DNA of 25,643 nt from an uncultured Planctomycetia bacterium (GCA_964388645.1 CAYMBK010000031.1:1-25643); one strand, 5' to 3'; numbered from the stretch's first letter, positions 5,765 to 19,397 are shown. Program-made: numbers and translations. The notes: generated by a model from the letters alone, not told the origin.

Positions 5765-5857
5765 ATATTCTGCGGCTCTGCTCAAAGTAGGGCAAGGTAG
5801 TTTTTTTGTGGTTTTCAGTGAAGGGATGTATATGTGCGCCAAGGGAAGGGAAGAGGG

Positions 5858-6700
5858 ATGAAGAAAATATTTTTTTTAGTTTTTTTAATATCGGTCCTGC
5901 ATTTTTGCGATGTTGTGGCAGAGCCCGAAAAGGCAACGGTTTTTTCCACTCAGGGAAAAGTAAGCATGATACCCAAAGGAAGCACTTCGTCCATCGAAGC
6001 TTATCCCGGGATGCAGCTTAACGAGGGCGACTGGATAAAGACAGATAAAGCGTCTTCTGTGGCGATATCGTTCAATGAAGAAGACAGCAATGTTGTAAGC
6101 GTAAAGGAAAATACTCTTGTTATACTCAAGCTTGACGGATATTTCAAGATACATCTTCTTTCCGGTGAGATATACGCTTTTTTAGAAAGCGTTGAGAAAG
6201 ATGAGTCTTTCAGAGTGCTCATGCCTTCGGTGGTCACGGAATCAGCAAGCAGCGGGTGGGGAGCTACTACTGACGGCAGTTATACCAATGTTATGGTCTT
6301 TGAAAATCAGGCTTTTATTTGTGGTATCAATATGGACGGTAGTGTCGATGATAAGAAGTTCTGGATAGACGAAGGTTTTCAGCGCAAGACCATAAAGTTC
6401 CAGGACCCCGGTGCGATCAGGCCTGTTCCTAAGGATGTCGCCACATGGTTCAAGGAACAGGTAGTCGCCCATCATCTCGAAAAGTCCCTCTCACGCGATA
6501 TTAAGACAAGCCCCCCGGTGCCTGCTTCCCCGGGAAGAACTGACAATAAAGGGCCCGCTAAAGATGTTGACGCCCAAAAGGAAGAGGACTTTAATGGGTC
6601 AGCCGGGCCGTCCCATCATGCTCCCGGTGTTTTTGTAACGGACGGAGAAGAGATCAATCTCGTGGAGTATCTTTACAGGGAGAGGCTCAGGCAGAGGTAA
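5858..6700 (+). CDS. exported FecR-domain protein
   Basis: Signal peptide MKKIFFLVFLISVLHFCDVVA. FecR-like pattern QGKV...GMQLNEGDWIKT...SSVAISF...SNVVSVKENT. GAGGG RBS before the ATG at 5858. Confidence 0.75.
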   Translation: MKKIFFLVFLISVLHFCDVVAEPEKATVFSTQGKVSMIPKGSTSSIEAYPGMQLNEGDWIKTDKASSVAISFNEEDSNVVSVKENTLVILKLDGYFKIHLLSGEIYAFLESVEKDESFRVLMPSVVTESASSGWGATTDGSYTNVMVFENQAFICGINMDGSVDDKKFWIDEGFQRKTIKFQDPGAIRPVPKDVATWFKEQVVAHHLEKSLSRDIKTSPPVPASPGRTDNKGPAKDVDAQKEEDFNGSAGPSHHAPGVFVTDGEEINLVEYLYRERLRQR

Positions 6701-6718
6701 TTCTTAAGAAGACCGTCT

Positions 6719-7492
6719 CTAGGGAAGCCATTCTTGCAGCGTCAGGTTCAACGGCCGCCGGATTATCCTGGGGTCATAGAAGTTCTTAACTCCCGCTCTT
6801 GTCCATTTGGTCATTTCATCTTCGATAGCTACCGTGCTGCTCGTTTCAAGCCCCTTTACGGAGGAATCGCTGTACACTATAAGGGTAGGCTCTTTGTAGC
6901 TTAGAAGGCTCTCTACTGTTTCCTTGAATTTTTCGGGGGAAGAAATGATGTGGGCTAGATGCGCGATAACGCATTTGTATTTTTTGCTTTTTCCGGCCCG
7001 CACCATTTCGGCTTCATCCTTGACGGTCTTGGTGTCATAGCCGTGTTTGTCAAAGATCCTGGATATTTTTTCGGTAACATGAGGAGAATCCGTCATAAGC
7101 AAGGCTTTGTTGCGGGTGAGGTCCTTAGCCGCCGAAACAAGATCCTGTTTTTCGACGGGTTTTGCCAGAAATCCATCGGCTCCGCAGGAAAGAAAAGTGT
7201 CAGACATACCGGATCTGCCGGAAACGACAAGAACAGGAAGATTCCGGGTGCTAGAGGCTGATCTCAGAGATTTGAATACGGAAAAACCGTCTAACTTGGG
7301 CAGAATAATGTCGAGTACGACAAGGTCGAATTTGTCTCTTTGCAGGAGCTTTATCGCCGTTTCCCCGTCCTCTGCCGGAATGACCGAAAATCCCCCGCTC
7401 TCAAGCATCGCTTTAGAAACATCCAGAAGATCCGAGTCATCCTCTACTAAAAGCACTCTTTTTGGGGGTTGATCTTTTGCGGGTATGTTCAT
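6719..7492 (-). CDS. response regulator: intact receiver plus degenerate second receiver, no output domain
   Basis: VLLVEDD, LVVLD61IILP, VVSG and LAKP conserved in domain 1. Domain 2 has the same layout with His178 at the phosphoacceptor position. Confidence 0.87.
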   Translation of the reverse strand: MNIPAKDQPPKRVLLVEDDSDLLDVSKAMLESGGFSVIPAEDGETAIKLLQRDKFDLVVLDIILPKLDGFSVFKSLRSASSTRNLPVLVVSGRSGMSDTFLSCGADGFLAKPVEKQDLVSAAKDLTRNKALLMTDSPHVTEKISRIFDKHGYDTKTVKDEAEMVRAGKSKKYKCVIAHLAHIISSPEKFKETVESLLSYKEPTLIVYSDSSVKGLETSSTVAIEDEMTKWTRAGVKNFYDPRIIRRPLNLTLQEWLP

Positions 7493-7685: not shown

Positions 7686-7760
7686 CGCGGGGTGGAGCAG
7701 AGGTAGCTCGTGAGGCTCATAACCTCAAGGTCGGAGGTTCGATTCCTCCCCCCGCAACCA
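7686..7760 (+). tRNA. initiator tRNA-fMet (CAT)
   Basis: Full cloverleaf: acceptor CGCGGGG/CCCCGCA with C1xA72 mismatch, A11-U24 pair, anticodon arm TGAGG-CTCATAA-CCTCA, T arm GGAGG-TTCGATT-CCTCC, encoded CCA. Confidence 0.98.
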
Positions 7761-7807: not shown

Positions 7808-7831
7808 CTTTAGGGCAGTCTTTACGGGCTG

Positions 7832-7850
7832 TGCTAACACTATGCTAACA
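7832..7850. repeat. tandem TGCTAACA direct repeat with 11-bp period
   Basis: TGCTAACA at 7832-7839 and 7843-7850, about 70 nt past the tRNA 3' end. Confidence 0.6.
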
Positions 7851-8011
7851 AAGTTGATCTAGGAGCCTTTCCGCAGGTCGTTCAAATATCTATTTTCGCC
7901 CCCGCCAAAGAAGAAGCTTTTTGAAATAGAACCGCCTCGGTCAAACCCACCTTGAGGGCATCAATTAAGCACAAACAAAAAACACCGCTTAAATTAAAAC
8001 GGTATAAATTC

Positions 8012-8040
8012 TTGAGCAATGCCCTTGCAAGAGCTATAAT
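8012..8040 (+). promoter_or_regulatory. sigma70-like promoter upstream of the small membrane-protein genes
   Basis: TTGAGC (8012-8017), 17 nt spacer, TATAAT (8035-8040). Confidence 0.5.
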
Positions 8041-8270
8041 CTGTTATGGTTATGAGGAAGTGGCCTGGTGGGAAGATGGGAAGCAGGCTCTTGATCATTA
8101 TCCAAGGCGATCTTACGCGGAACGGGGGATGTTGCCTTGTTTATTGTTTTATAAGAGGTTCCGGGGGGATTCAGCCTTGCGCTGATAATGTTTGTGATGA
8201 AGAGGGAAAAATAGCGCCGCTGTGATGAAAGTCGTCCGGGTTTGGAGCAACCGAAGACAAGGAGGCTTAT

Positions 8271-8561
8271 ATGCCGAAAGAAAACCTTAGTGATCTCTTT
8301 AAAGGGGTGAAGTGGTATGAGATAATTCTGTCGTGTTGGCCGCTTGTTCTAATGTTTATGGGGGGCGCGGTCGGGGGAGCGTGCGGAGCCGCAGCCTGCT
8401 ATTTTAATCTTCATTTGTTCAAGAAGGACATGAAGAGGCCTCTCAAATATTTATTTAGTGTTCTTATCGGCGCGGGCAGTGTTCTTTTGTATGCTATTAT
8501 TATATGGGTTCTTGCTGCTTTTTTCCCTGATCTATTTGCCGGGTCCGATGGGCAGGGTTAA
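8271..8561 (+). CDS. small hypothetical membrane protein (2-3 TM)
   Basis: AGGAGG RBS. 96 aa, hydrophobic, with a glycine-zipper-like MGGAVGGACGAAA stretch. Confidence 0.8.
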   Translation: MPKENLSDLFKGVKWYEIILSCWPLVLMFMGGAVGGACGAAACYFNLHLFKKDMKRPLKYLFSVLIGAGSVLLYAIIIWVLAAFFPDLFAGSDGQG

Positions 8562-8630
8562 TAGTTACTTGAGCGCGGTATGTAGATATTTTTTAAGAAG
8601 GTAAGTTCCTGCGATTGCGAGGAGGTTGTC

Positions 8631-8840
8631 ATGGAAGGATCTCTTGCTGTATTGATCATGGCATTGCTAGCGATATTCAGTTTATTTTTCTATTTTTTGC
8701 CGTCTATAGCGGGAAGGAGAAAAAGGAATGCCGGAGCGATCTTTATATTAAATTTGTTGCTTGGCTGGACTTTTATAGGATGGGTGGTAGCTTTAGTCTG
8801 GGCGCTATGCAAGGATCCTGAGCCTGTAAAACAGTGTTGA
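8631..8840 (+). CDS. superinfection immunity protein (phage T4 Imm-like family)
   Basis: AGGAGG RBS. Family signature YFLPSIA...N..AIFILNLLLGWTFIGWVVALVWA. Confidence 0.85.
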   Translation: MEGSLAVLIMALLAIFSLFFYFLPSIAGRRKRNAGAIFILNLLLGWTFIGWVVALVWALCKDPEPVKQC

Positions 8841-8875
8841 AACAATGCTGTCCGGAGAGAATCTAAAAAACCGCC

Positions 8876-9035
8876 CATTGAGAGGGATCGAAGCGACCGA
8901 AGCCCTTCGTTCTGTGGAAATATATATGGCTCAGGATTTCGGCAGACTTAGCCTGTAGCAGAAGCAATCTTTTGAAATGTTTGATTTTGCTGGGGATCGC
9001 TTCGTCACTCTTTTCAGCCGTTCCCCGCGATGACA
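8876..9035. repeat. inverted pair of degenerate REP-like elements
   Basis: CATTGAGAGGGATCGAAGCGACCGAAGC (+, from 8876) faces TGTCATCGCGGGGAACGGCTGAAAAGAGTGACGAAGCGATCCCC (-, 9035-8992). A GAAGCAATCT fragment sits at 8961-8970. Confidence 0.45.
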
Positions 9036-9246
9036 CCGTCAGGTCTAATTATCGATATAATTTTCACCCTATAAAAACGATTGACGCACTTGTTCTAAAA
9101 CCCCTGGTTTATGAGGCTCACAGGATACGGTTAGAGTCCAGATGATAGATTTCTTGTTTTTCCCGAACAGCATTGTTACAAAGTTGAAGATCATGGTATG
9201 GGAAACTCGCTTTTCTTTGTTAGAAACAAAAAAAGTTAAAATCCTC

Positions 9247-9276
9247 AAATAGTGTGATACAATGATCTCACTTTTT
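9247..9276 (+). promoter_or_regulatory. extended -10 promoter of the giant gene, overlapped by an inverted repeat
   Basis: TG-n-TACAAT (9255-9263). Arms AAATAGTGTGAT (9247-9258) and ATCTCACTTTTT (9265-9276) are complementary at 10/12 positions. Confidence 0.55.
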
Positions 9277-9382
9277 TGAAGCCGCCCTTAGGCGTTGAAG
9301 GGCACTATGCGTGGCAGGGCTACGTTCGCGGCAGAGAGAATGAGTAAGACATTGTTGATCGGGGCACATCTTTCGGAGGAGA

Positions 9383-12300
9383 ATGGTGAGATATTTTTTG
9401 GTGAATTACAGGGCATGTGTTAGGGCCATTGCTATCTGCGTTGCCGTGAGCTTTTTCTGCCAGAACGTCGTTTTGGCCGCGGGTACGGATATTCCGATGC
9501 CGGGCAATCTTCTTCCTTCTTCCGGGTTCAATTTCATAACGGGAACATCCGTTCCCGGTGAGTTCGAAGTGACGGCTTTTCTGAAATACTTGCAACATCG
9601 GATAGGGGTGTTACGGAAAAAATATCCGAAACGGTTTTTAACGCCCGAACTCATCAGGGATCTTCTGTCCGAACAATTCACTCAGGGTATTCCGGGATTT
9701 GACCCTCAAAAAATGTACCCACAGGGCAACGAACTGGTCATGCCCCTTTGGGATCGTGAGATACGCATATCCCTGCCCGATGGACGAACAAGGATCGATG
9801 GCGAGAGCGAACTGACCGTCTCGGAAGCGTCCCCGGCGAAAGACGAGCACGTCATGCGCAGCGGTCCTGGAAGCGGCCCGGACCACTTTAGGGGGGAGCC
9901 AAAGGATCGTGGTCCCCGAGAACGAATAAGGATGTACACCCATTTTACGGATGATCAGCTTATTGAAGAGATCGTAAAGACAAGGGATGAGTTTCTTGCC
10001 CGGAAAGACGAAGAGGGCTACTCACGAGAGACAGGCAAGACCCCGAATTTTAACCTTGCCGCGTTGAAAAAAACCAATCTCCGTCTTTACGACTATCTGC
10101 TCAACCACGACAAGAAGAATCTACTGCACCAGATACCATTTTTGCCGGGCAAGGAAGATCTCGAGACGGATATCGGCGGCGGTATGGAAGATCTCCCCGC
10201 CACATCTTCGGGCGCGGAGTGGTCTGCCTCTTTTGTCGAAGAAATATTTGACGGTGGATTTCTGACAGCAACAGAAAAAACGATCTTAACGCTTTTTTTC
10301 GGTCTGGGCGGGCAATGGTCAGCAAAAGCCCCGGTAATAGCCCGTGAACTCAACCTTACACGACAACGGATAGATCAGCTCAGAGAAAAGGCAATTGACA
10401 AGATAAGAAGGTGGATCGCCACGAGAGATCTGGCCATTTTCGGGTTTTCGCCGGGCGAAGCGGCTTGGATATTGTCCTTTTATCCGACCATGGATGGATT
10501 CGCTCAAAGAATATCCCGCGTGAGGAGGATGCTCAGGGTTTCTGATGATGCCGCTTCGTCTTTTACCCCGGAAGAAAGGAAAAACCTGGCCAGATCCGTT
10601 TTGGAAGAACCGTGGCCACCGGAGGCGAGGTCGTCTGAAAGAACGCGAAGGCCGAACGGCAGGGGCAGGTCCGCTTCCGCGCGTATCACGCCACTCGTCG
10701 CGATAACGGGCATCGCTATCGGCGCGGCTATCTTCCTGCCGGCGATATCCGCCGCCGCGCGAGGGCTTTATCATTATCTTGCATCCTCAGGTATCTCCGG
10801 GTTTTTGCCCGGAGGAGGTGAAGTGACGCTCATTTTAGGGTTGCCTCTTCTTGGATCCGTTTTTTCCGCGCGGGGCCCAGGCAACGAAGCGAGAAAAATT
10901 GAAGAGGCTCTGTCCGCCGTGCGCGATATGACCGCGGGGAGGGACGAATATGATCCCGCGGAAGGACGCAATCCAAAAGAACGGAAGATACTGGAGGTGT
11001 ACGGCGAGCTTCAGAGAGAGAAAGGAACCGGCTATGTACCTGATCTCACAGAATTGGCCGAACGGGCGGAGATCGGCACATCGACACTTAAGTCCCGTTT
11101 GTTCAGGATGAACCTGGACAGGAACGACAGGTATCTGAAAGCTCTTGTCTACAGAGGATCTGACCTTCCTCAAGTTGGAGGCAAAAGGGGTTACGCTTCA
11201 CTGGGCTGGATGGGAGAGGATCTGGGCTTTGTCTATTCTCCGTTCCTGCATGCCCCTGTACTTGAAGAACTTTTCAAGGTCGGTATACCGCTCGCTATTT
11301 TTAATATCCTGAGCTTTATTACTCCGGAACTGCCGGCTCTTAATCTTTCCGTTTTTGTATCCACGTCTGTGATCTTGGCTTTTGTTTTTCTTGCCGCGCA
11401 CCTTCTGAACGAGGATGGGCCTTACAGCGTAGACAGGCCGTTCTCCCTGGCGTCCGCGCAAATAAGAGCCGTGTTTTTACGGCACCCTCTCATGGCCGCT
11501 AAAAAAGTACATAAGACATGGCATTACATAAAAGTGACGAGGGGTACCCATTATCTGGCTTTCAACATCCTTGCGGCGCCGGCCTACTCGGCGGCATTCG
11601 GAATTTTGCTGTCACTGCCTTTTGTGGTGTTTCTGGGGCCTTCGGTTTTCAATATCATTCCGTTATTCCTGAGCATGCTTCTGCACTATTTTCAGAACCG
11701 CCGCATAAAAATGATAAACGAAAAAGAGAGGAGGACGATAAGGTATGCCTCTCTCCCGGGATGGGTTAAAATGGTCTTTCCTCATGGTAAAGAAGCGATC
11801 AGGACGATCTTCTCGAAAAATACAACATTCGGAACAACCGCTCATCCGCGCAGTCCTCAAAGGCTTGCCCGGTGGTCACCTTTTGAGGACGGAGTTCCGA
11901 TGGCATCGGATAGTTCCAGCCCCGACGGTATAAGGCCGCTTGGTGGCCCGGAAGAAGAAGCCGCGCGCGCCGCGTCCGGGAAAAAGCGATCTCTGGAAGA
12001 GTTGATCGCATCAGGCGATATCGCGAAGGGGACTTCGGAATACGTGTCTCCCGCGACAGCCAGGCAGACAATGGAAAAAGCGGGACAAGTACTCACGCGG
12101 GAAGAGGAACAAACTCTTTTTCGGGCACTTCATTCCGCGTGGAGGCCTGAGGACAAGCCGGTCAAACGCGCTGTTGTAGATATGATCGTCATGAAAAACC
12201 AGGGTTTGGTGTGGTCGGCCGTCAGAAAATTTGTGTATACCGAAGACAAGAATGTCATAGCCGATGCCGTTCAGGACGGGAACCTGGGTCTTCTGGAAGC

Positions 12301-15300
12301 CATACTGCGTTTCGGTTATGAGTTCAATCATAAGTTCTCGACTTACGCCTCGCACTGGATAAAAAAGTACATCAAGGAAGGATCGAAAATCATTACCGAA
12401 AGCATCCATATCCCGAGAAAGGAGGTGGAGAGATCGGACCGCTTGAAAAAATTTGTGGTATCGTTGCAAAATACGCTGGGCAGAGTTCCATGCGTCGATG
12501 AAATAGCGGAAAAGGCCGGCCTGGCAGTTAGTGAAGTTGTACGGCTTTTAGGAGTAAGGGCCATTCAGCCCGATTCTCTGTATGTGCCTGTAAAAAAGAC
12601 GCTGGGGTCGGGGAAGAAAACAGTTCACCTCGGAGACCTGATCGCCGGTTCCGGCGGTGTTCACTATCAGGAAGATATTTCAAGCAAAGAGGTACTTTCG
12701 TATCTTTTTGCCAGTCTGACATTCACACAGCGCGTTGTTGTCAAGATGAGAAACGGCATAGGCACAGTGAGGGACAAGAGGTACTCAGTTCGAGAGATAG
12801 GGAGCCTGATCGGCTGTAGCGGCGCGAATGTACACCTTATTGAAAAGGAGGCCCTAAGAGTTTTAGGTAGAGCTGTCTCCAGGAAGAAGGACAGCGAGGT
12901 CACGACCGAAGGGGTCGATAATACCGATGTTCATATTGCCGAGATATTACAGATCAGCCCTCTGAAACAAGGAGATCTCTTCGAGAAAGAGTTCCGGCGT
13001 ATCAGAGAGGAAAGGTTAAAGGATGAGAGGGCATCGGACGGAACAGATGACAGCGGGCTCACACTGGAGGAAGAGACACAAGCCCTTTCTTCCGTAAGCC
13101 ATGATCCTAAACGTCCGGTCAGCGTAAGAGGAACAATAGCGCGGGTGTTCGGAAAGGACGTGAAGCCGGGCGTTGTGGACATAGGTTCGCTGCACGGATC
13201 GTTCGTGAAGGATTTTCTGGACATGCACGGAGATGTGGTCGGCGAGATGATAGGGATAGACACGGTATACGACAGGAGCAGGATAACTGCCGATATTGCC
13301 GACGCCATGCATGAGGAAGGGATCTGGTCTGAATATGAACGTGCCTACTACGCCGGGGAAGAAAGCCCCCTTATGAGCGTGGACGAGGTAATGGGGGACC
13401 CGTCCAGAAAAGGAACTTTCGGCGTGGCCACCATTAACAAACCGCCGGGCGGAATGGATGATTTTAAGGCTATGGTAGATGAAGCCGTTTATTTGGGAGC
13501 GCGCCTGATATTTCTCGACGCTAACGCTCGAGATATTCAGGAAGAGGGTTTGGAATATCTTCGGAGCCTGGGATATGACATTGTTGAGATGCCTGGCAAG
13601 CCCGAAGATTACCCCGCCACGGAGCAGATGAGAGTGGTTGTGAGAGAAAGGTTCTTTGTTTGCGAAAGAAAGGTAGAGCCCGAGGAAATAAACCCCGAAG
13701 AGGTCCGCGTTGAGGGTCTGCCCGTAGTGTGGTCCGGCGGCAAAGACGGCTCCGGACGAGGGGTGGCCGGCGTCCAGATCGATGTGGGAAGTATTTCCGG
13801 GAATACCGTGAGAATGGCCGGCATTGTCGAAGCTTTGGCCAGTCTGGGGCGGAAAGCCCCCGGGCTTGTAATATTCCCGGAACAGATAGACGAAGACTAC
13901 ATGAGCTGGACGGATGAGATCGCGGGAAAAAGGAGAGAGATACTCAGACAGAAGGCCATAGCCACAGGTATAGCCATAGGTTACGGTATTGAGCATTTGC
14001 CCGGAGGGGACTATGAGAGAGGGAGTGTTTTCTACGAGATAGTAAAGCCCGTGGGATTGGGATCGGAACTGACCCGGTTCAGAAAATATGACTACGTGAA
14101 GGAGAACCGCCTGGTCGAGATAAACGGTACAAAGATCGCCGTTCTTATATGCGGAGAGGCCGAAGCCCTGCTGGCGCCGCGGTCGCGCGGCATCAGAACA
14201 GACAGTGATATCAGCCGGGCTGACCTGCTCATTGTCCCGTCCACAACGGATATGTGGTCCGCGAAGTTCTGGCCTGGCGCTTTGTTCGAAAAATACGGTG
14301 TTCCGGCAGCTTTTATCAACCGGGCCGACATAACGAACGCGGGCAACCCCTGGCACGACGGGTTTACGCCTTCACGATACCGGGAACCGCCTGATGAGGC
14401 AACTATTTTGAGCGCCGGAGAACAGATAATGATTTTAGCCCCCGGGTGTGTTTCGGACAATGTAACGGGAGATAAGGAAGCTATGGCCTCGGATCGGAGC
14501 GAACGCGAGGCGATAGAACGCGTTTCCTGCGCGCTGCGCAGCGTCCAACACAGCGGTTTAAGCGCCTTTGATATTGACGGTATGGCACACAGAGCGGTAA
14601 GCGCCATGGCCGAGGTGATCCTCTCGACGGAAAAGGACTTTCCGGTAATGTCAGGGAGGATGAAGGATCTTGCCGACGGCCTCGTGGAACGATCAAAGGC
14701 CTTTCGAGTAGAAAGAACAAGTTTTGACTCCGCTTCCGAAGACGGAGCATTGACCGCGGAGGCCGCCGAAGGATATGCCAGGGCGATAGCCGAATATGGA
14801 CAGGCCGTGCGGGATATCAGGACTGAGGCGGAAAAGCTTGTCTCGGATCCCGTAGAGCGGACCTATCCCGGTATCGAAGGGATAATGGGTTTATACCGAG
14901 AAGTATGGAAGGAGATGGATCGTCTTTCAGAAGCGGTCAAAAGCCGTTCTGAGCTTGCTTCCGGTACGGGGTCTACGGATCTGATCCCCGTATCTGAGGT
15001 GATCCGCCTGGTTGTAAGTGGAAGGCCGTACGTTACGATGGAGAACGAACTCGCGCCGGACGTCCTGCTCGAGGGTAACCGTTTGTCGTTTGCCGGAGCC
15101 GTGGCGAACATCGTCGACAATGCGGTGTTCTTTGCCGCGAAACGGCGGACAAACGACGGGACCCCGGCCTTTGTCACGATCACCCTGGCCGAGGAAAAAG
15201 GGAATATCAGGATAGATATAACCGATACAGGCGGAGGGATCTCACATGATCTGCTAGTAGCGGATTATGTAATGCAAAGGCCGAGATTTTTCAACCTTGA

Positions 15301-17737
15301 TGTTTCGCGCAGGGAAGGGGGAACGGGCCTTGGTGCCACCGAGGCCTGGTACGCCGTAAAGGATATGGAAGGCAGTATCAACGTCAGTTCCGCGCCCGGC
15401 GAGGGCACTACTTTCACTATCGGCGTGCCGATCGCCACGTCTATTCCGACCGAGGTTAAGGCGAAGTTCCATAAACCCGGCGGGCCGGGCCTGCCGCAAC
15501 TGGCGAAACTTCCGCCCGAGGCTGAAGCGACGTTCCGCAATTCCGGTGACACAATACCTGATTCGACGAAAGAGATAAGTAATGTGTTCCCGGAACTTCC
15601 AACACCCGATGCGGCAAGGGGTTCGGATGAAGTGAAACGTTCTCGTAGTACGATAGAGGATCTAAAACCGGAACGGACCGTGCGGATTTTAGATATAGGG
15701 AGCGGTACCGGTGCGGAGAGTCGCTGGGGGAGTGGTGCGTCGCATAGAGAAATCAAAGAGGTCGTCCGGAGAAGAACGGCAAAAGACGACGAAGAAGTAA
15801 GAGTTGAGCTTATTGGAATAGATAAAGACGCTGAAGAAGTTCGTCGAGGGAAAGCCCTTGGCTTTGATATCAGGGAGATGGACGCGCGAAAAAGCACCGG
15901 TTTCAAGGAAAAAAGTTTTGACCTTATAACCCGTTATAACCCTTCCACTACAAAAGATATCTTAGATATTCTGCCGGAAGTAAAAAGAGTTTTAAAGCCG
16001 GAAGGTGAATTTTGGGTTGCTCCCTGGCTTGAGGACTATGACGAATTTCTGAATGTATGGAGGAGGGATCCGAAATACCTACAGCACTATGTGGATGCGT
16101 TGGAGGCGAATGGTTTTTCAGCGGAAGTCATAGAAGAACATCGGCCTGATATGCCACCCGTACTTATTGTCGCCAGGCTGATACCGCACGTCCCGCTCGA
16201 GGTTCGCGCGAAAGCCCGGCGCGAAGGCGGTTTGCGCCTCGCAAAAATACCGCCCGAAGGAGATCAGGCATTCGAGCAGGAACAGGCAAAAGCGGTGATG
16301 ACGGAAGGCGCAAAGCCGCTTTTGCGCGATATCAAGACACAAAACAGAGGCGAGATCTATCCTCAATGCACCGCTTATTCGCATATAACCGCGGAGAAAT
16401 TCAGACAAATGGTCGAATGCTTGGCAGGCGGAAAAATAGGCGATGAAGAAGAAAAAGAGCTGGTAAGATTTGACAAAGTTTTAGAAGAACTGGAGCTTGT
16501 CAGGCAAAGGCTTAATGGAGGGCATTACAACAGATTATATCACTCGGTATCATGTTTCGAAGCCTCGAAAGAGACGATCGATGTCCTCAGCAGGAACGGT
16601 TTTTCATCCGTGCAATTGATAAGACGAAAATTCATCGACGACAAAATACCAAGCAAAATTTTCGGACCGGCCAGTGCCTTTTTGTACGGGTCATGGATAG
16701 ACGATGATGGGGATACGTATGCTCATTCATACGTGGTCGCCAGGATCGCCGGGGAGTACTTCGTAATAGACCTGTCGGCCGGACAGTTCCTGACGGAACA
16801 GTTATGGGACTACAAAGACCTCGGAATATTCATTGTTCCGATAAAAGACCTTGATGAGCATTCCTGGCCTTACGCGATGGGCGATGTGTTCCTCAACGAT
16901 AAAGAAGAGGCTCTAGAGCTTGTTAGCGGAGATGAGAAAGCTCTCGAAGCCATTATGAACCCACGGGGAACGGTGCCTGAGGGTGTTATGAGCTACGCGG
17001 CGGAATATTCAAATGAGCGGAATAACACTCCCGGGACACGGGTGCCGGACGATACGGATACCGAGGGCATGGCAGACCATGCCGCGCAGGATGATCCGGT
17101 AACGGAAACGCTTTCGTTGCCTCCTGCGTCGCGGGAACAGCCCGAGATGGAACTTATAAAGGAGCTTATACTAACAAGCGAGATCATCGCATCGGCTTCG
17201 CTCACGGGCGAACCGGTCATAGTGGGTATCGATACTAGCTGGGTGCCGGCCGAGCAGAGAGCTCTCGATTCTTTCGGGGCCATGCTAAGACAGCTCAAGG
17301 GTCTGCCGGCGAAGCTGGGAGCTCACCACATAACCATCTTGACGGCAAGCGATCCGGAGGTCCTGAGCGGGGAAATAGACCGGGTCATCAAAAAAAGAGA
17401 CAAGACTGTGAAAATGTCTAACATACTCCTCATAGGCCAGTTCGACGGTATAGACGGGTCAAAGAACACATCTTATGACAGGTTCAAGACGTCTCCGGAA
17501 GGCGAGAGCGCGTGTTTCGCGCATATTGTTGTTCCTGCGGTCAGTGCCGGAAAACATTATGACGTGGACATGCAGAGTATTCTCAGGCTGGCGCTCGCCG
17601 AACACAGGGCCATTCACCGGCAGGGAGGCAAGAGGTTTTTTTATCTGAATTTACCCGGTGCCGGACAGGACGGGTTAACTGTCAAAGAGCTTCATGATCG
17701 CCATAGAGCCAGGAACTATGCTCTAAAAATGGCCTAA
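9383..17737 (+). CDS. giant 2784-aa multidomain membrane-associated protein (sigma70, MTase, nitrilase-fold, HATPase and transglutaminase-like modules)
   Basis: 8355-nt uninterrupted ORF with GGAGGAG RBS. Signal-like N-terminus (RAIAICVAVSFFCQNVVLA-AG), hydrophobic TM block, and the domain motifs listed as separate features. Confidence 0.95.
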   Translation: MVRYFLVNYRACVRAIAICVAVSFFCQNVVLAAGTDIPMPGNLLPSSGFNFITGTSVPGEFEVTAFLKYLQHRIGVLRKKYPKRFLTPELIRDLLSEQFTQGIPGFDPQKMYPQGNELVMPLWDREIRISLPDGRTRIDGESELTVSEASPAKDEHVMRSGPGSGPDHFRGEPKDRGPRERIRMYTHFTDDQLIEEIVKTRDEFLARKDEEGYSRETGKTPNFNLAALKKTNLRLYDYLLNHDKKNLLHQIPFLPGKEDLETDIGGGMEDLPATSSGAEWSASFVEEIFDGGFLTATEKTILTLFFGLGGQWSAKAPVIARELNLTRQRIDQLREKAIDKIRRWIATRDLAIFGFSPGEAAWILSFYPTMDGFAQRISRVRRMLRVSDDAASSFTPEERKNLARSVLEEPWPPEARSSERTRRPNGRGRSASARITPLVAITGIAIGAAIFLPAISAAARGLYHYLASSGISGFLPGGGEVTLILGLPLLGSVFSARGPGNEARKIEEALSAVRDMTAGRDEYDPAEGRNPKERKILEVYGELQREKGTGYVPDLTELAERAEIGTSTLKSRLFRMNLDRNDRYLKALVYRGSDLPQVGGKRGYASLGWMGEDLGFVYSPFLHAPVLEELFKVGIPLAIFNILSFITPELPALNLSVFVSTSVILAFVFLAAHLLNEDGPYSVDRPFSLASAQIRAVFLRHPLMAAKKVHKTWHYIKVTRGTHYLAFNILAAPAYSAAFGILLSLPFVVFLGPSVFNIIPLFLSMLLHYFQNRRIKMINEKERRTIRYASLPGWVKMVFPHGKEAIRTIFSKNTTFGTTAHPRSPQRLARWSPFEDGVPMASDSSSPDGIRPLGGPEEEAARAASGKKRSLEELIASGDIAKGTSEYVSPATARQTMEKAGQVLTREEEQTLFRALHSAWRPEDKPVKRAVVDMIVMKNQGLVWSAVRKFVYTEDKNVIADAVQDGNLGLLEAILRFGYEFNHKFSTYASHWIKKYIKEGSKIITESIHIPRKEVERSDRLKKFVVSLQNTLGRVPCVDEIAEKAGLAVSEVVRLLGVRAIQPDSLYVPVKKTLGSGKKTVHLGDLIAGSGGVHYQEDISSKEVLSYLFASLTFTQRVVVKMRNGIGTVRDKRYSVREIGSLIGCSGANVHLIEKEALRVLGRAVSRKKDSEVTTEGVDNTDVHIAEILQISPLKQGDLFEKEFRRIREERLKDERASDGTDDSGLTLEEETQALSSVSHDPKRPVSVRGTIARVFGKDVKPGVVDIGSLHGSFVKDFLDMHGDVVGEMIGIDTVYDRSRITADIADAMHEEGIWSEYERAYYAGEESPLMSVDEVMGDPSRKGTFGVATINKPPGGMDDFKAMVDEAVYLGARLIFLDANARDIQEEGLEYLRSLGYDIVEMPGKPEDYPATEQMRVVVRERFFVCERKVEPEEINPEEVRVEGLPVVWSGGKDGSGRGVAGVQIDVGSISGNTVRMAGIVEALASLGRKAPGLVIFPEQIDEDYMSWTDEIAGKRREILRQKAIATGIAIGYGIEHLPGGDYERGSVFYEIVKPVGLGSELTRFRKYDYVKENRLVEINGTKIAVLICGEAEALLAPRSRGIRTDSDISRADLLIVPSTTDMWSAKFWPGALFEKYGVPAAFINRADITNAGNPWHDGFTPSRYREPPDEATILSAGEQIMILAPGCVSDNVTGDKEAMASDRSEREAIERVSCALRSVQHSGLSAFDIDGMAHRAVSAMAEVILSTEKDFPVMSGRMKDLADGLVERSKAFRVERTSFDSASEDGALTAEAAEGYARAIAEYGQAVRDIRTEAEKLVSDPVERTYPGIEGIMGLYREVWKEMDRLSEAVKSRSELASGTGSTDLIPVSEVIRLVVSGRPYVTMENELAPDVLLEGNRLSFAGAVANIVDNAVFFAAKRRTNDGTPAFVTITLAEEKGNIRIDITDTGGGISHDLLVADYVMQRPRFFNLDVSRREGGTGLGATEAWYAVKDMEGSINVSSAPGEGTTFTIGVPIATSIPTEVKAKFHKPGGPGLPQLAKLPPEAEATFRNSGDTIPDSTKEISNVFPELPTPDAARGSDEVKRSRSTIEDLKPERTVRILDIGSGTGAESRWGSGASHREIKEVVRRRTAKDDEEVRVELIGIDKDAEEVRRGKALGFDIREMDARKSTGFKEKSFDLITRYNPSTTKDILDILPEVKRVLKPEGEFWVAPWLEDYDEFLNVWRRDPKYLQHYVDALEANGFSAEVIEEHRPDMPPVLIVARLIPHVPLEVRAKARREGGLRLAKIPPEGDQAFEQEQAKAVMTEGAKPLLRDIKTQNRGEIYPQCTAYSHITAEKFRQMVECLAGGKIGDEEEKELVRFDKVLEELELVRQRLNGGHYNRLYHSVSCFEASKETIDVLSRNGFSSVQLIRRKFIDDKIPSKIFGPASAFLYGSWIDDDGDTYAHSYVVARIAGEYFVIDLSAGQFLTEQLWDYKDLGIFIVPIKDLDEHSWPYAMGDVFLNDKEEALELVSGDEKALEAIMNPRGTVPEGVMSYAAEYSNERNNTPGTRVPDDTDTEGMADHAAQDDPVTETLSLPPASREQPEMELIKELILTSEIIASASLTGEPVIVGIDTSWVPAEQRALDSFGAMLRQLKGLPAKLGAHHITILTASDPEVLSGEIDRVIKKRDKTVKMSNILLIGQFDGIDGSKNTSYDRFKTSPEGESACFAHIVVPAVSAGKHYDVDMQSILRLALAEHRAIHRQGGKRFFYLNLPGAGQDGLTVKELHDRHRARNYALKMA
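10262..10410 (+). other. domain in giant protein: isolated sigma70 region 4 HTH
   Basis: LTATEKTILTLFFGL...IARELNLTRQRIDQLREKAIDKIR matches the L..RE..VL.LRFGL...EIG..L.LTRERVRQI...AL.KLR pattern. Confidence 0.8.
12050..12870 (+). other. domain in giant protein: RpoD/RpoS-like sigma70 core (regions 1.2, 2, 3, 4)
   Basis: LTREEEQTL (1.2); KNQGLVWSAVRKF...DAVQDGNLGLLEAILRF...KFSTYASHWIKKYI (2); IHIP...LGRVPCVDEIAEKAG (3); LTFTQRVVVKMRNGI...YSVREIGSLIG...IEKEALRVL (4). Confidence 0.9.
13150..13640 (+). other. domain in giant protein: divergent class I SAM-methyltransferase-like fold
   Basis: VVDIGSLHG (motif I variant), MIGID (motif II), later GTFGVATINKP. Confidence 0.5.
13763..14440 (+). other. 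domain in giant protein: nitrilase/carbon-nitrogen hydrolase fold
   Basis: VAGVQ...LVIFPE1500...FRK1568Y...GTKIAVLIC1590GE...ADLLIVPS; the E-K-C triad is present. Confidence 0.8.
14483..15430 (+). other. domain in giant protein: histidine-kinase-like helical region plus HATPase_c
   Basis: N box ANIVDNA, G1 DTGGGI, F box RFF, G2 GTGLG, terminal GSINVSSAPGEGTTFTI. Possible H-box GMAH at 14579-14590. Confidence 0.85.
15680..16175 (+). other. domain in giant protein: class I SAM-dependent methyltransferase
   Basis: VRILDIGSGTG, LIGID, EMDAR...FKEKSFDLIT, LPEVKRVLKPEG. Confidence 0.88.
16500..16900 (+). other. domain in giant protein: transglutaminase/papain-like Cys-His-Asp domain
   Basis: SC2391FEAS..TIDVLSRNG, AH2448SYVV, VID2463LSAGQF, with the order and spacing typical of this fold. 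Confidence 0.6.
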
Positions 17738-17767
17738 ATTTCTCGCCGCGACCCAAAAAAAGATGTA

Positions 17768-17795
17768 GACGATCGGCCGTTCGTCCGGTTTTTTT
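17768..17795 (+). terminator. possible weak intrinsic terminator after the giant gene
   Basis: GACGA/TCGTC stem followed 3 nt later by a T7 tract. The stem is short. Confidence 0.35.
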
Positions 17796-18019
17796 GTCGG
17801 AAGGATCGAAAAACTTTAATGCCATACGGCCGATTTAATTTCGAACAAAGTATACAGGGCCTATTGTTAAGTGGCTGGCTTTTCGACGGTGTGACCTGAC
17901 GGCAAGAAGGTGTTTGCACTTTTTTGTCCTATTTTGAGCTGAACGTCAGGGTATTTTTTGCGGATCTATCCAGTATCGTCCGGGGATTTCGGGTATTCTT
18001 TTCGCAAGGTCCAATCTAA

Positions 18020-18048
18020 TTGACACCAATCAACAGGTATGATATAAA
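18020..18048 (+). promoter_or_regulatory. sigma70 promoter of the pur operon
   Basis: TTGACA (18020-18025), 17 nt spacer, TG-n-TATAAA (18040-18048). Confidence 0.65.
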
Positions 18049-18104
18049 AAAAGCTCCCGTTCGGTGGGATTTTAACTAAAACATCCGAAAAAAGAGGTGA
18101 GAGG

Positions 18105-19397
18105 ATGATAAAGAGATATTCCAGGCCCGGGATGGCTTGCATATGGGACGAGGAGAACAGATTCCGGAAGATGCTGGATGTGGAGATACTGGCCTGCGAA
18201 GCCTTCGCGGAACTCGGCATAATCCCCAAAGAAGCGGCGAAAACGATAAGAGAAAAAGCTTCTTTCAGCGTCGAGAGGATAAATGAGATAGAAAAGGTCA
18301 CCAATCACGATGTGGTGGCGTTCATTAAGAGCGTGTCGGAGAACGTAGGGGAAGATGCCCGATATTTTCATTACGGCCTCACTTCAAGCGATGTTCTTGA
18401 TACCGCGCTGTCTATACAGATGGTGGAGGCGGCCGATCTTTTGATAGAGGGTATAGAAAAACTTATGAAAGCTCTCAAGGAGAAGGCGATAGAACATAAA
18501 AAGACACCCATGATGGGACGTTCTCACGGGGTGCACGCGGAACCTATATCTTTTGGGCTTAAGATGGCCCTTTATTACAGAGAAATGGGCAGGAACCTTG
18601 ACCGCATGAAAAAGGCCAGGGAAACTGTGGCCGTAGGGAAAATATCCGGTTCAGTAGGCACCTTCGCCAACGTAGATCCCGGCGTAGAGGAATATGTCTG
18701 CAAGAAACTGGGTTTTGAGCCGGCTGGTGTCGCCAATCAGGTGATACAAAGGGACCGGCACGCTTATTATCTCAACGTTGTAGCGCTGACCGGGGCGACT
18801 CTGGAAAAAATAGCTCTTGAAGTAAGAGGTCTTCAGAAAACCGAAATAAACGAAGTACAGGAATATTTCTCAAAAGGGCAGACCGGTTCTTCGAGCATGC
18901 CGCACAAGAAAAACCCCATAATATGCGAGAGGATAACAGGACTTGCCCGGGTGTTGCGCGGTAACGCTACGGCGGCAATTGAGAATGTGGCTCTTTGGCA
19001 CGAGAGGGATATATCACATTCTTCGGTTGAAAGGGTGATATTGCCGGATTCCACCATTCTGCTTGATTATATGCTTGGCAAGTCGGAGGATCTTGTGTCT
19101 AACCTCATAGTTAACAAGGAGAATATGCTGAGGAATATGCAGGTTTCTAAAGGGCTTGTTTATTCCCAGCATATAATGCTTGAACTGATAAAAAAGGGCG
19201 CGACGAGGCTGGAGGCTTACGATCTTATTCAGGGAGCGGCTCTTGAATGTCACTCCGGAGATAAAGATTTCAAAGACCTTGTCATGAATGATAAGGGAGT
19301 TAGAAGTTATCTAAGTGAAAAAGAAATAAGCGATTGCTTCAGCCTGGATTACCATTTAAGGCACGTCGACAGAATATTCAAGAACATAGGCCTTTGA
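18105..19397 (+). CDS. purB: adenylosuccinate lyase
   Basis: MIKRYS start, HDVVAF, HYGLTSSD, GRSHGVHAEP, signature GSSSMPHKKNPI. Confidence 0.97.
   Translation: MIKRYSRPGMACIWDEENRFRKMLDVEILACEAFAELGIIPKEAAKTIREKASFSVERINEIEKVTNHDVVAFIKSVSENVGEDARYFHYGLTSSDVLDTALSIQMVEAADLLIEGIEKLMKALKEKAIEHKKTPMMGRSHGVHAEPISFGLKMALYYREMGRNLDRMKKARETVAVGKISGSVGTFANVDPGVEEYVCKKLGFEPAGVANQVIQRDRHAYYLNVVALTGATLEKIALEVRGLQKTEINEVQEYFSKGQTGSSSMPHKKNPIICERITGLARVLRGNATAAIENVALWHERDISHSSVERVILPDSTILLDYMLGKSEDLVSNLIVNKENMLRNMQVSKGLVYSQHIMLELIKKGATRLEAYDLIQGAALECHSGDKDFKDLVMNDKGVRSYLSEKEISDCFSLDYHLRHVDRIFKNIGL

Follow-up and report, generated by a model that had tools for sequence, protein, structure and literature searches.

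A sigma70-family module with replaced promoter-contact residues, embedded in a membrane-anchored protein of 2,784 amino acids

We analyzed a stretch of 25,643 nucleotides (nt) deposited under the name of an uncultured Planctomycetia bacterium (GCA_964388645.1 CAYMBK010000031.1:1-25643), hereafter the window, in which a single stop-free open reading frame (ORF; 9383-17737, + strand), with GGAGGAG directly 5' of its ATG, translates into a mosaic, membrane-anchored long protein of 2,784 amino acids (aa). Embedded in this protein is a sigma70 module, and we are highly confident that it is a real sigma-family module belonging to a separate clade of such embedded modules. Our preferred reading, in which we place neither more nor less than even confidence, is that it may be a membrane-held cytoplasmic sigma unit that docks on the core of RNA polymerase (RNAP) and does not read canonical promoters. 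What appears to be new is a sigma70-family module of a distinct clade in a new architecture, with a function that is predicted.

The module is a member of the sigma70 superfamily: curated models recognize it, its regions follow the order 2-3-4, and its predicted fold is that of sigma2, sigma3 and sigma4. In Pfam, Sigma70_r2 (PF04542) matches with 34.7 bits (cut-off 24) and Sigma70_r4 (PF04545) with 32.9 bits (cut-off 24.1), the latter in two stretches, one inside the module and one at aa 294-342; Sigma70_r3 (PF04539) scores 17.4 bits, under its cut-off of 25.3, and the region still aligns colinearly. When aa 860-1190 were compared to NCBIfam, RpoD/SigA-type models matched over nearly the full length (E 1e-27 to 1e-25), and the superfamily model TIGR02937 alone scored above its cut-off (59.1 bits vs 42.9). 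A prior reading of the DNA without database searches (the sequence-only reading) had described regions 1.2 to 4 as colinear, and this is borne out, as phmmer aligns aa 926-1164 with RpoD/SigA from the PDB (E 1.6e-22) and region 1.2 is present. The motif differences quoted there are all found in the phmmer alignment: QDGNLGLLEA versus QEGNIGLMKA, KFSTYASHW versus KFSTYATWW, and SGANVHLIE versus TRERIRQIE. Its location of the module at 12050-12870 (aa 890-1163, + strand) was right as to place and too narrow in extent, homology reaching from aa 836 to aa 1193 (nt 11888-12961). An AlphaFold2 model based on an alignment of 57 sequences shows confidently predicted helices for sigma2, sigma3 and sigma4 and a finger shaped as a hairpin, and its best Foldseek matches are sigmaA and sigmaS in initiation complexes (holoenzymes; E 1e-13).

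In order to find relatives of the module we searched 1.84 billion representatives exhaustively with HMMER. The closest relatives are sigma modules inside long proteins (861-4,033 aa) and not free sigmas. The best match other than the query itself, at 39% identity, is P0005 (1,903 aa), a protein headed by its sigma module. Embedded modules are also found in P0006 (861 aa), P0007 (2,965 aa), P0009 (2,133 aa), P0020 (4,033 aa) and P0003 (3,915 aa), while P0011 (2,384 aa) carries two full sigma modules and P0004 (3,581 aa) three, together with extra region-4 units. The named proteins among these relatives are labelled Candidatus Omnitrophota, with one Elusimicrobia, and the NCBI pipeline already labels some of the embedding proteins "sigma-70 family RNA polymerase sigma factor". 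A full-text literature search returned no paper that describes sigma modules within such long proteins. Features common to the embedded modules include an x(L/I)RP leader, LT.EEE..LFRAL(H/Y), and KMR.GIGT in region 4.1; by alignments and tree the query has the characteristics of this clade, embedding in a protein of more than 800 aa included. A clade-profile search of 301 genomes of the phylum identified clear clade-type modules in a few of them, in frames of 2,399 aa (two modules), 3,346 aa and 7,637 aa. A further sigma module lies in a 35,009-aa frame (G227:C9), where it scores just at the level of free RpoD.

A maximum likelihood tree of 64 rows (IQ-TREE, LG+C20, careful search) agrees with these results. 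Its 51 canonical rows include E. coli RpoD, RpoS and RpoH as well as both sigmas of the query's own genome, which encodes a canonical RpoD (544 aa, every motif canonical) and a 287-aa group-2-like sigma. One branch, with 96/98 support, has the 51 canonical rows on one side and all 12 embedded modules together with FliA on the other. The query groups with P0006 and P0007 (96/85) and then with P0005 and P0003, and its end branch measures 1.55 vs 0.74-0.90 in its sisters. The labels "group 1/2-like" and "primary-type" given to the module by the sequence-only reading cannot be retained, since it falls outside the RpoD/RpoS/RpoH clade and misses the RpoD/SigA/RpoS cut-offs widely. For Group 1, the best score is 97.1 bits vs a cut-off of 384.5, and RpoD_Cterm gives 94.9 vs 354; the Group 1/2 contact residues W433, Q437, R584, E585, R586, R588 and Q589 are H, K, G, A, N, H and L; and for Group 3 (SigB/F/G, FliA), TIGR02980 gives 83.9 bits vs a cut-off of 234. 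Because of the tree placement and the missed family cut-offs, "group 1/2-like" describes architecture only and not membership. With group 1/2 sigma70 factors (RpoD/SigA, RpoS) the module shares colinear regions 1.2, 2.1-2.4, 3.0-3.2 and 4.1-4.2, the best matches to hidden Markov models (HMMs) and PDB entries, the predicted fold, and helix 2.2. It differs from them in lying outside their clade and below their cut-offs, in having neither region 1.1 nor the non-conserved region, in its location within a 2,784-aa membrane protein (aa 880-1180), and in the replacement of its -10, finger and -35 contact residues. A phage origin was considered and rejected: a tblastn search against 50,697 phage records gave only matches of ~30% identity, no closer than cellular RpoD.

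The sequence-only reading had also noted replaced promoter-contact residues alongside a recognizable core-binding segment; the alignment, a conserved-column count and the AlphaFold2 model agree in showing other residues at these positions and a retained fold with its core-binding helix 2.2. In E. coli numbering, the changes are E420G, R423F, Y425H, W433H, Q437K, T440K and R441E in regions 2.3/2.4, H455K in region 3.0, and R584G, E585A, R586N, R588H and Q589L in the recognition helix of region 4.2. In helix 2.2 the residues D403, Q406, E407D, G408, N409 and M413L are kept, and Y430, W434 and E458 are retained elsewhere in the module. Compared with the sister modules, the region 3.2 finger has several extra residues, and it is basic where the sisters and RpoD are acidic. 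Over 107 columns conserved among canonical sigmas, the query deviates in 32, four sister modules in 21-27, E. coli RpoH in 28 and E. coli FliA in 40. The possibility of neutral decay, raised by the sequence-only reading, finds no support in this tally, the query lying inside the range of RpoH and FliA by what is a count of conserved columns and not a selection test. Thirteen changes are unique to the query and canonical in its sisters: position 420 (to G), G424N, W433H, Q437K, R441E, H455K, D516K, L548F, E555Q, E585A, R586N, R588H and Q589L. About ten of them (420, 433, 437, 441, 455, 516, 585, 586, 588 and 589) are at what we take to be nucleic-acid contacts, presumably the -10, extended -10, finger and -35 positions. 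Among 17 embedded modules, R586 and Q589 are kept in every one but the query, and the WW pair is kept in only about six. Judged from these alignments, DNA-reading residues have been selectively exchanged and the scaffold preserved, a pattern that differs from uniform erosion and would fit re-targeting and loss of DNA reading alike. That canonical -10/-35 reading has been lost is, in our estimate, quite probable.

Re-targeting would make the module a bona fide alternative sigma of new promoter specificity which, once released, directs RNAP to non-canonical promoters, perhaps those of giant-protein genes. The intact fold and helix 2.2, a deviation count between those of RpoH and FliA, the retention of Y430, W434 and E458, and the concentration of changes at contact residues, which suggests re-specification over uniform erosion, all speak for it. 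However, the three arginines of the -35 helix have become G, N and H, with less positive charge; the finger is basic instead of acidic; a candidate promoter motif was neither found nor looked for; and three same-genus genomes lack the gene, which would confine any regulon to one species. We regard a re-targeted sigma as possible, and rather less probable than a docking unit. The module might also be vestigial or purely structural, a product of domain shuffling that now drifts and has no task at RNAP. None of the sisters has an end branch as long as that of the query, the WW melting residues are lost in several members of the clade, and the gene is species-specific, located at a synteny break, and part of a family that shuffles modules freely. 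Such drift is hard to reconcile with 2,784 codons without a stop or frameshift, with hydrophobic cores and a helix 2.2 that are kept in a confident model, or with about ten of the 13 query-unique changes lying on presumed nucleic-acid contacts instead of being evenly spread, and we consider a vestigial module unlikely.

The features of the protein and the genes on either side of it are collected in Table 1.

Table 1. Features of the 2,784-aa protein and its surroundings; positions are counted from the first nucleotide of the window.
Feature	Residues (aa)	Position (nt)	Strand	Remarks
Upstream genes				STT3-type transferase, S41 peptidase, FecR-like protein, response regulator, tRNA-Met
Orphan sigma70 region 4	294-342	10262..10408	+	Near-canonical recognition helix LTRQRIDQL
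First hydrophobic pair	437-460 and weaker 477-495	10691..10867	+	K/R-rich loop before
Recurrent four-helix transmembrane module	~600-795	11180..11767	+	GYASL (aa 603-607) and RYASL (aa 787-791) flanks
Sigma-module leader	836-879	11888..12019	+	Clade-conserved x(L/I)RP motif
Internal GGAG, 5 nt, ATG	M840 of MASD	11891..11902	+	40 codons before sigma module
Region 1.2-like segment		12020..12187	+	Clade signature LT.EEE..LFRALH(A/S); includes VLTREEEQTLFRAL
Sigma region 2	936-998	12188..12376	+	Helix 2.2 kept, regions 2.3/2.4 altered
Sigma region 3	1018-1072	12434..12598	+	Extended -10 residue H455 replaced by K
Region 3.2 finger		12575..12652	+	Long, basic (KKTLGSGKKT); modelled beta hairpin
Sigma region 4	~1105-1165	12695..12877	+	Recognition helix SGANVHLIE
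RASD motif	1216-1219	13028..13039	+	Just past sigma module; with MASD at aa 840 brackets the module
Recurrent module	1437-1662	13691..14368	+	Common to other giant ORFs of the family
Kinase-like module ending in HATPase_c	HATPase_c 1905-2017	14483..15433	+	Pfam PF02518
Class I methyltransferase domain	2100-2213	15680..16021	+	Pfam PF08241
C-terminal domain	2583-2783	17129..17731	+	Common to many long ORFs of related genomes
Downstream genes				Housekeeping genes purB, purM, purD, glyA

Hydropathy and the positive-inside rule predict transmembrane (TM) segments at aa 437-460, 477-495 (weak), 629-650, 655-677, 725-745 and 750-770, with K/R-rich loops at aa 415-436, 681-722 and 773-800. By the positive-inside rule these loops would place the sigma module on the cytoplasmic face, and its position after a multi-pass TM block, pointed out by the sequence-only reading, stands. 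The four-helix TM module occurs in 12 of the 301 genomes of the phylum, always in frames of 999-16,618 aa, some of which hold two or three copies (loci L029-L048, with up to three copies in one 11,160-aa frame). The cytoplasmic insert between its helices 2 and 3 varies in length and is 40 aa long in the window copy, and G[YF]A[ST]L flanks the module on both sides and recurs across copies. In 14 copies the residues AP..E(E/D)..(K/R)VG.P, F...H and H...N are invariant; this triad corresponds to CPBP/Rce1 motifs 1-3 (EExxxR, FxxxH, HxxxN), on the expected core helices 1, 2 and 4. An hhalign comparison with 20 Omnitrophota CPBP domains brings the three motifs into register, at P values of 7e-4 to 5e-3 only, and 71 of the 100 nearest clusters in the ESM-Atlas are Rce1-like, with a score of 0.82 that is under the level the tool trusts and serves as a lead only. 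A profile search of the PDB with the TM module was empty, and a PF02517 search of the genome returned one separate 256-aa gene only. With CPBP/Rce1/Abi proteases (PF02517) the TM module shares four core helices and the motifs EE(x3)R/K, FxxxH and HxxxN, which agree in order and in the helices that carry them; it differs in having no Pfam HMM match or fold-search support, in its 40-aa cytoplasmic insert and G[YF]A[ST]L flanks, and in being found only inside giant proteins. Whether the module is a CPBP-type protease is about an even call.

Two routes by which the sigma module might be freed can be read from the protein. The pattern [YFMR]AS[LD] occurs six times in the ORF vs 0.39 expected. Five copies are at module borders, namely aa 604 and 788 (TM module), 840 and 1216 (sigma module) and 1701 (before the kinase-like module), and the sixth, at aa 1109, is inside the sigma module. 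Five nucleotides separate a GGAG from the codon of the methionine M840 that follows it. A second MASD methionine, M1701 (14474-14485), follows an AGGA resembling a Shine-Dalgarno (SD) sequence at a 4-nt spacing, and at both SD-like sites a gene may once have begun. The similarity to the N-terminus of P0005 begins at aa 836, which makes the gene look as if a membrane part (aa 1-835) had been joined to a "sigma-first" long protein; the internal start at M840 is possibly still usable. Linker-like motifs (GIRPLGG, SRSELASG, LAKLPPE/LAKIPPE) were seen at aa 846-853, 1855-1860, 2040-2050 and 2275-2285, and P0020 has SRSELR at the corresponding place ahead of its sigma module.

We propose that the conserved helix 2.2 would dock the module on the beta-prime clamp helices of the RNAP core; core docking is, in our view, equally easy to accept and to doubt. 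Unable to read canonical -10/-35 promoters, the module would serve as a membrane-held RNAP-docking unit, to which the orphan region 4 (aa 294-342) might supply a -35-type DNA contact. One option is a sigma of altered specificity that stays inactive as long as it is attached. It could be freed by cleavage at the bracketing xAS[DL] sites, for which the neighbouring CPBP-like module is a possible protease, or be made separately from the internal SD and ATG at M840. The alternative option is a non-initiating decoy or tether. Release by proteolysis is conceivable from the CPBP-type motifs and the arrangement of sites, both of them indirect pointers, and rather doubtful.

Several points weigh against this proposal. 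The binding to core is a prediction made from the sequence, in which helix 2.2 is conserved and the sigma4 core intact, and F563N and E555Q alter positions that we take to be flap contacts. The mean pLDDT of the AlphaFold2 model (88.4) is high partly due to the canonical-sigma alignment supplied to the program. Neither the 1.84 billion representatives nor the three same-genus genomes yielded an ortholog that could show purifying selection. An N-terminal hydrophobic segment at aa 11-35 does not fit a simple topology with all of aa 36-436 in the cytoplasm. For the TM module, the Pfam PF02517 HMM gives no match even at E 10, and four fold searches (Foldseek against PDB and AFDB, a VIA-wide search and the atlas) returned no specific CPBP match, with a model of pLDDT 76 from a 14-sequence alignment. 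A cut after the TM block alone would leave the sigma module fused to ~1,600 aa unless the chain were also cut at aa 1216. Finally, eight other giants with sigma modules show no enrichment of the xASD linker motif, which is therefore rejected as a family-wide cleavage signal; only the G[YF]A[ST]L flanks of the TM module recur.

The nearest mechanistic analogues of such an arrangement are the sporulation factors of Bacillus, where membrane-associated sigma precursors are activated by membrane proteases (pro-sigmaK by SpoIVFB and pro-sigmaE by SpoIIGA; PMC6242693, PMC12632252). The likeness lies in a membrane-held sigma with an N-terminal leader beside a candidate intramembrane protease, and by this analogy activation by cleavage would be the natural hypothesis for the window protein. 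In contrast to the pro-sigma systems, the putative protease of the window is CPBP-type (not S2P or aspartic) and on the same chain as the sigma, and the precursor has ~840 aa before the sigma and ~1,600 aa after it. The MzaA protein of the MZA anti-phage system is similar in that sigma70 regions 2-4 are fused to a large non-sigma part, and the PADLOC and NCBIfam MzaA models match the module. Membership in this defence system was rejected: NF041931 gives 72.2 bits vs a cut-off of 800, PADLOC 52.6 bits to the generic sigma part only, and no MZA partner genes are found within the window.

The protein also resembles the giant proteins of Omnitrophota. Long proteins with many TM segments and abundant methyltransferase and HATPase_c domains have been described in this phylum (West-Roberts et al. 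2023, bioRxiv 10.1101/2023.11.21.568195; 2026 preprint 10.64898/2026.06.07.730766), and the "Module 1" methyltransferase and HATPase_c type is regarded as TM-anchored and cytoplasmic (2026 preprint 10.64898/2026.06.07.730766). The window protein shares with them the phylum, the TM-studded build, the co-occurrence of PF08241 and PF02518 and the shuffling of modules among long ORFs; at 2.8 thousand amino acids (kAA) it is under the size thresholds of West-Roberts 2023 and the 2026 preprint. Sigma domains are unmentioned in these two works (10.1101/2023.11.21.568195, 10.64898/2026.06.07.730766) and in Seymour et al. 2023 (PMC10066038). By sequence comparison, modules appear to be shuffled among paralogous long genes of the genome. 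The kinase-like module is 46% identical to a paralogous 1,432-aa frame of the same genome. This frame (G000:C220; L025 2809-7104, - strand) shares the kinase-like and C-terminal modules at 44-46% identity, and a paralogous 525-aa frame (G000:C79; L026 1-1575, - strand) shares the N-terminal 140 aa at 50% identity. The idea that the HATPase_c domain is a SpoIIAB/RsbW-type anti-sigma kinase acting in cis was considered and is unsupported: the PF02518 match has a long kinase-like upstream part and recurs in long ORFs without a visible sigma match.

A predatory or parasitic way of life, with giant surface proteins, has been proposed for Omnitrophota (bioRxiv 10.1101/2023.11.21.568195; PMC10066038), and the protein or pieces of it could accordingly be imagined as exported cargo that enters a prey or host cell, the sigma unit then seizing the RNA polymerase of that cell. 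The N-terminus is signal-peptide-like and belongs to a module found at 47-50% identity in another ORF of the genome, and a core-binding sigma that reads no promoter would make an effective inhibitor. However, the positive-inside rule puts the sigma module and its flanking loops in the cytoplasm of the producer, domain searches detected no secretion or injection module, and the 2026 preprint reads long proteins of the methyltransferase/HATPase type as cytoplasm-facing (10.64898/2026.06.07.730766). We consider export very unlikely.

The window is chromosomal and comes from a bacterium with a small genome. The source assembly is a fragmented metagenome-assembled genome (1.41 Mb, 272 contigs, 76% complete) with a read depth of ~5-8x, and a chimera joining unrelated genes deserves consideration for that reason. 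Independently assembled contigs from two public DNA runs are 100% identical to the window over 9000-18000, with no joints and no loose ends; one piece (11930-13180) covers the entire sigma module, and single pieces also bridge the borders from TM block to pre-sigma segment and from sigma to the next module. With the same type of architecture recurring in other assemblies, an assembly chimera is hardly credible. A search of public runs found the sequence in DNA runs only, with no RNA evidence.

Three same-genus genomes (90-98% complete) gave matches at the RpoD level only and no copy of the giant gene. In the best-assembled of them purB-purM is syntenic, and no upstream gene of the window, giant gene included, lies within 15 kb. 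The giant gene is thus a species-specific accessory at a synteny break, because it is absent from the same-genus genomes and upstream synteny is lost. Synteny with the same-genus genomes begins exactly at purB (window 17738-18105), and the contig of one relative stops 0.4 kb upstream of purB. The ~1.5 kb before the giant gene (7813-9382) contain no convincing gene, which is unusual for a reduced genome; a 96-aa ORF there (8271-8561) has no Pfam match, and an Rfam scan of the window found tRNA-Met (7686-7760) only. The FecR-like protein and the divergently oriented response regulator occupy 5834-7492, and the window has no sigma factor of the extracytoplasmic function type. A 446-aa antisense ORF (13016-14356, - strand) lies within the giant gene just past the sigma module; none of the antisense ORFs inside the gene has a Pfam match.

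To our knowledge, sigma factors have been treated as free, small subunits, with the sporulation pro-sigmas the only membrane-linked precursors. If our interpretation is correct, a separate lineage of full sigma modules within proteins of 0.9-35 kAA, some with several modules per chain, would represent a new architecture of transcription control. A broader scenario, to which we give rather low confidence, is that Omnitrophota, perhaps with neighbouring phyla, have a dedicated sigma lineage in membrane-anchored multi-enzyme giants, where the modules, in some chains as many as three, would act as RNAP docking units that tie transcription to the giant assemblies, or be freed on demand by a built-in CPBP-type protease, the window copy being a specialised non-initiating or re-targeted form. 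A self-processing membrane polyprotein with its own sigma would, if real, be a new way of deploying sigma factors. The window copy would in effect be a natural separation-of-function variant, with core-binding elements kept and DNA-reading elements replaced, and hence a convenient first construct for asking whether embedded modules bind RNAP. The embedded modules would thereby provide a testable link from the poorly understood giant proteins of Omnitrophota to RNA polymerase.

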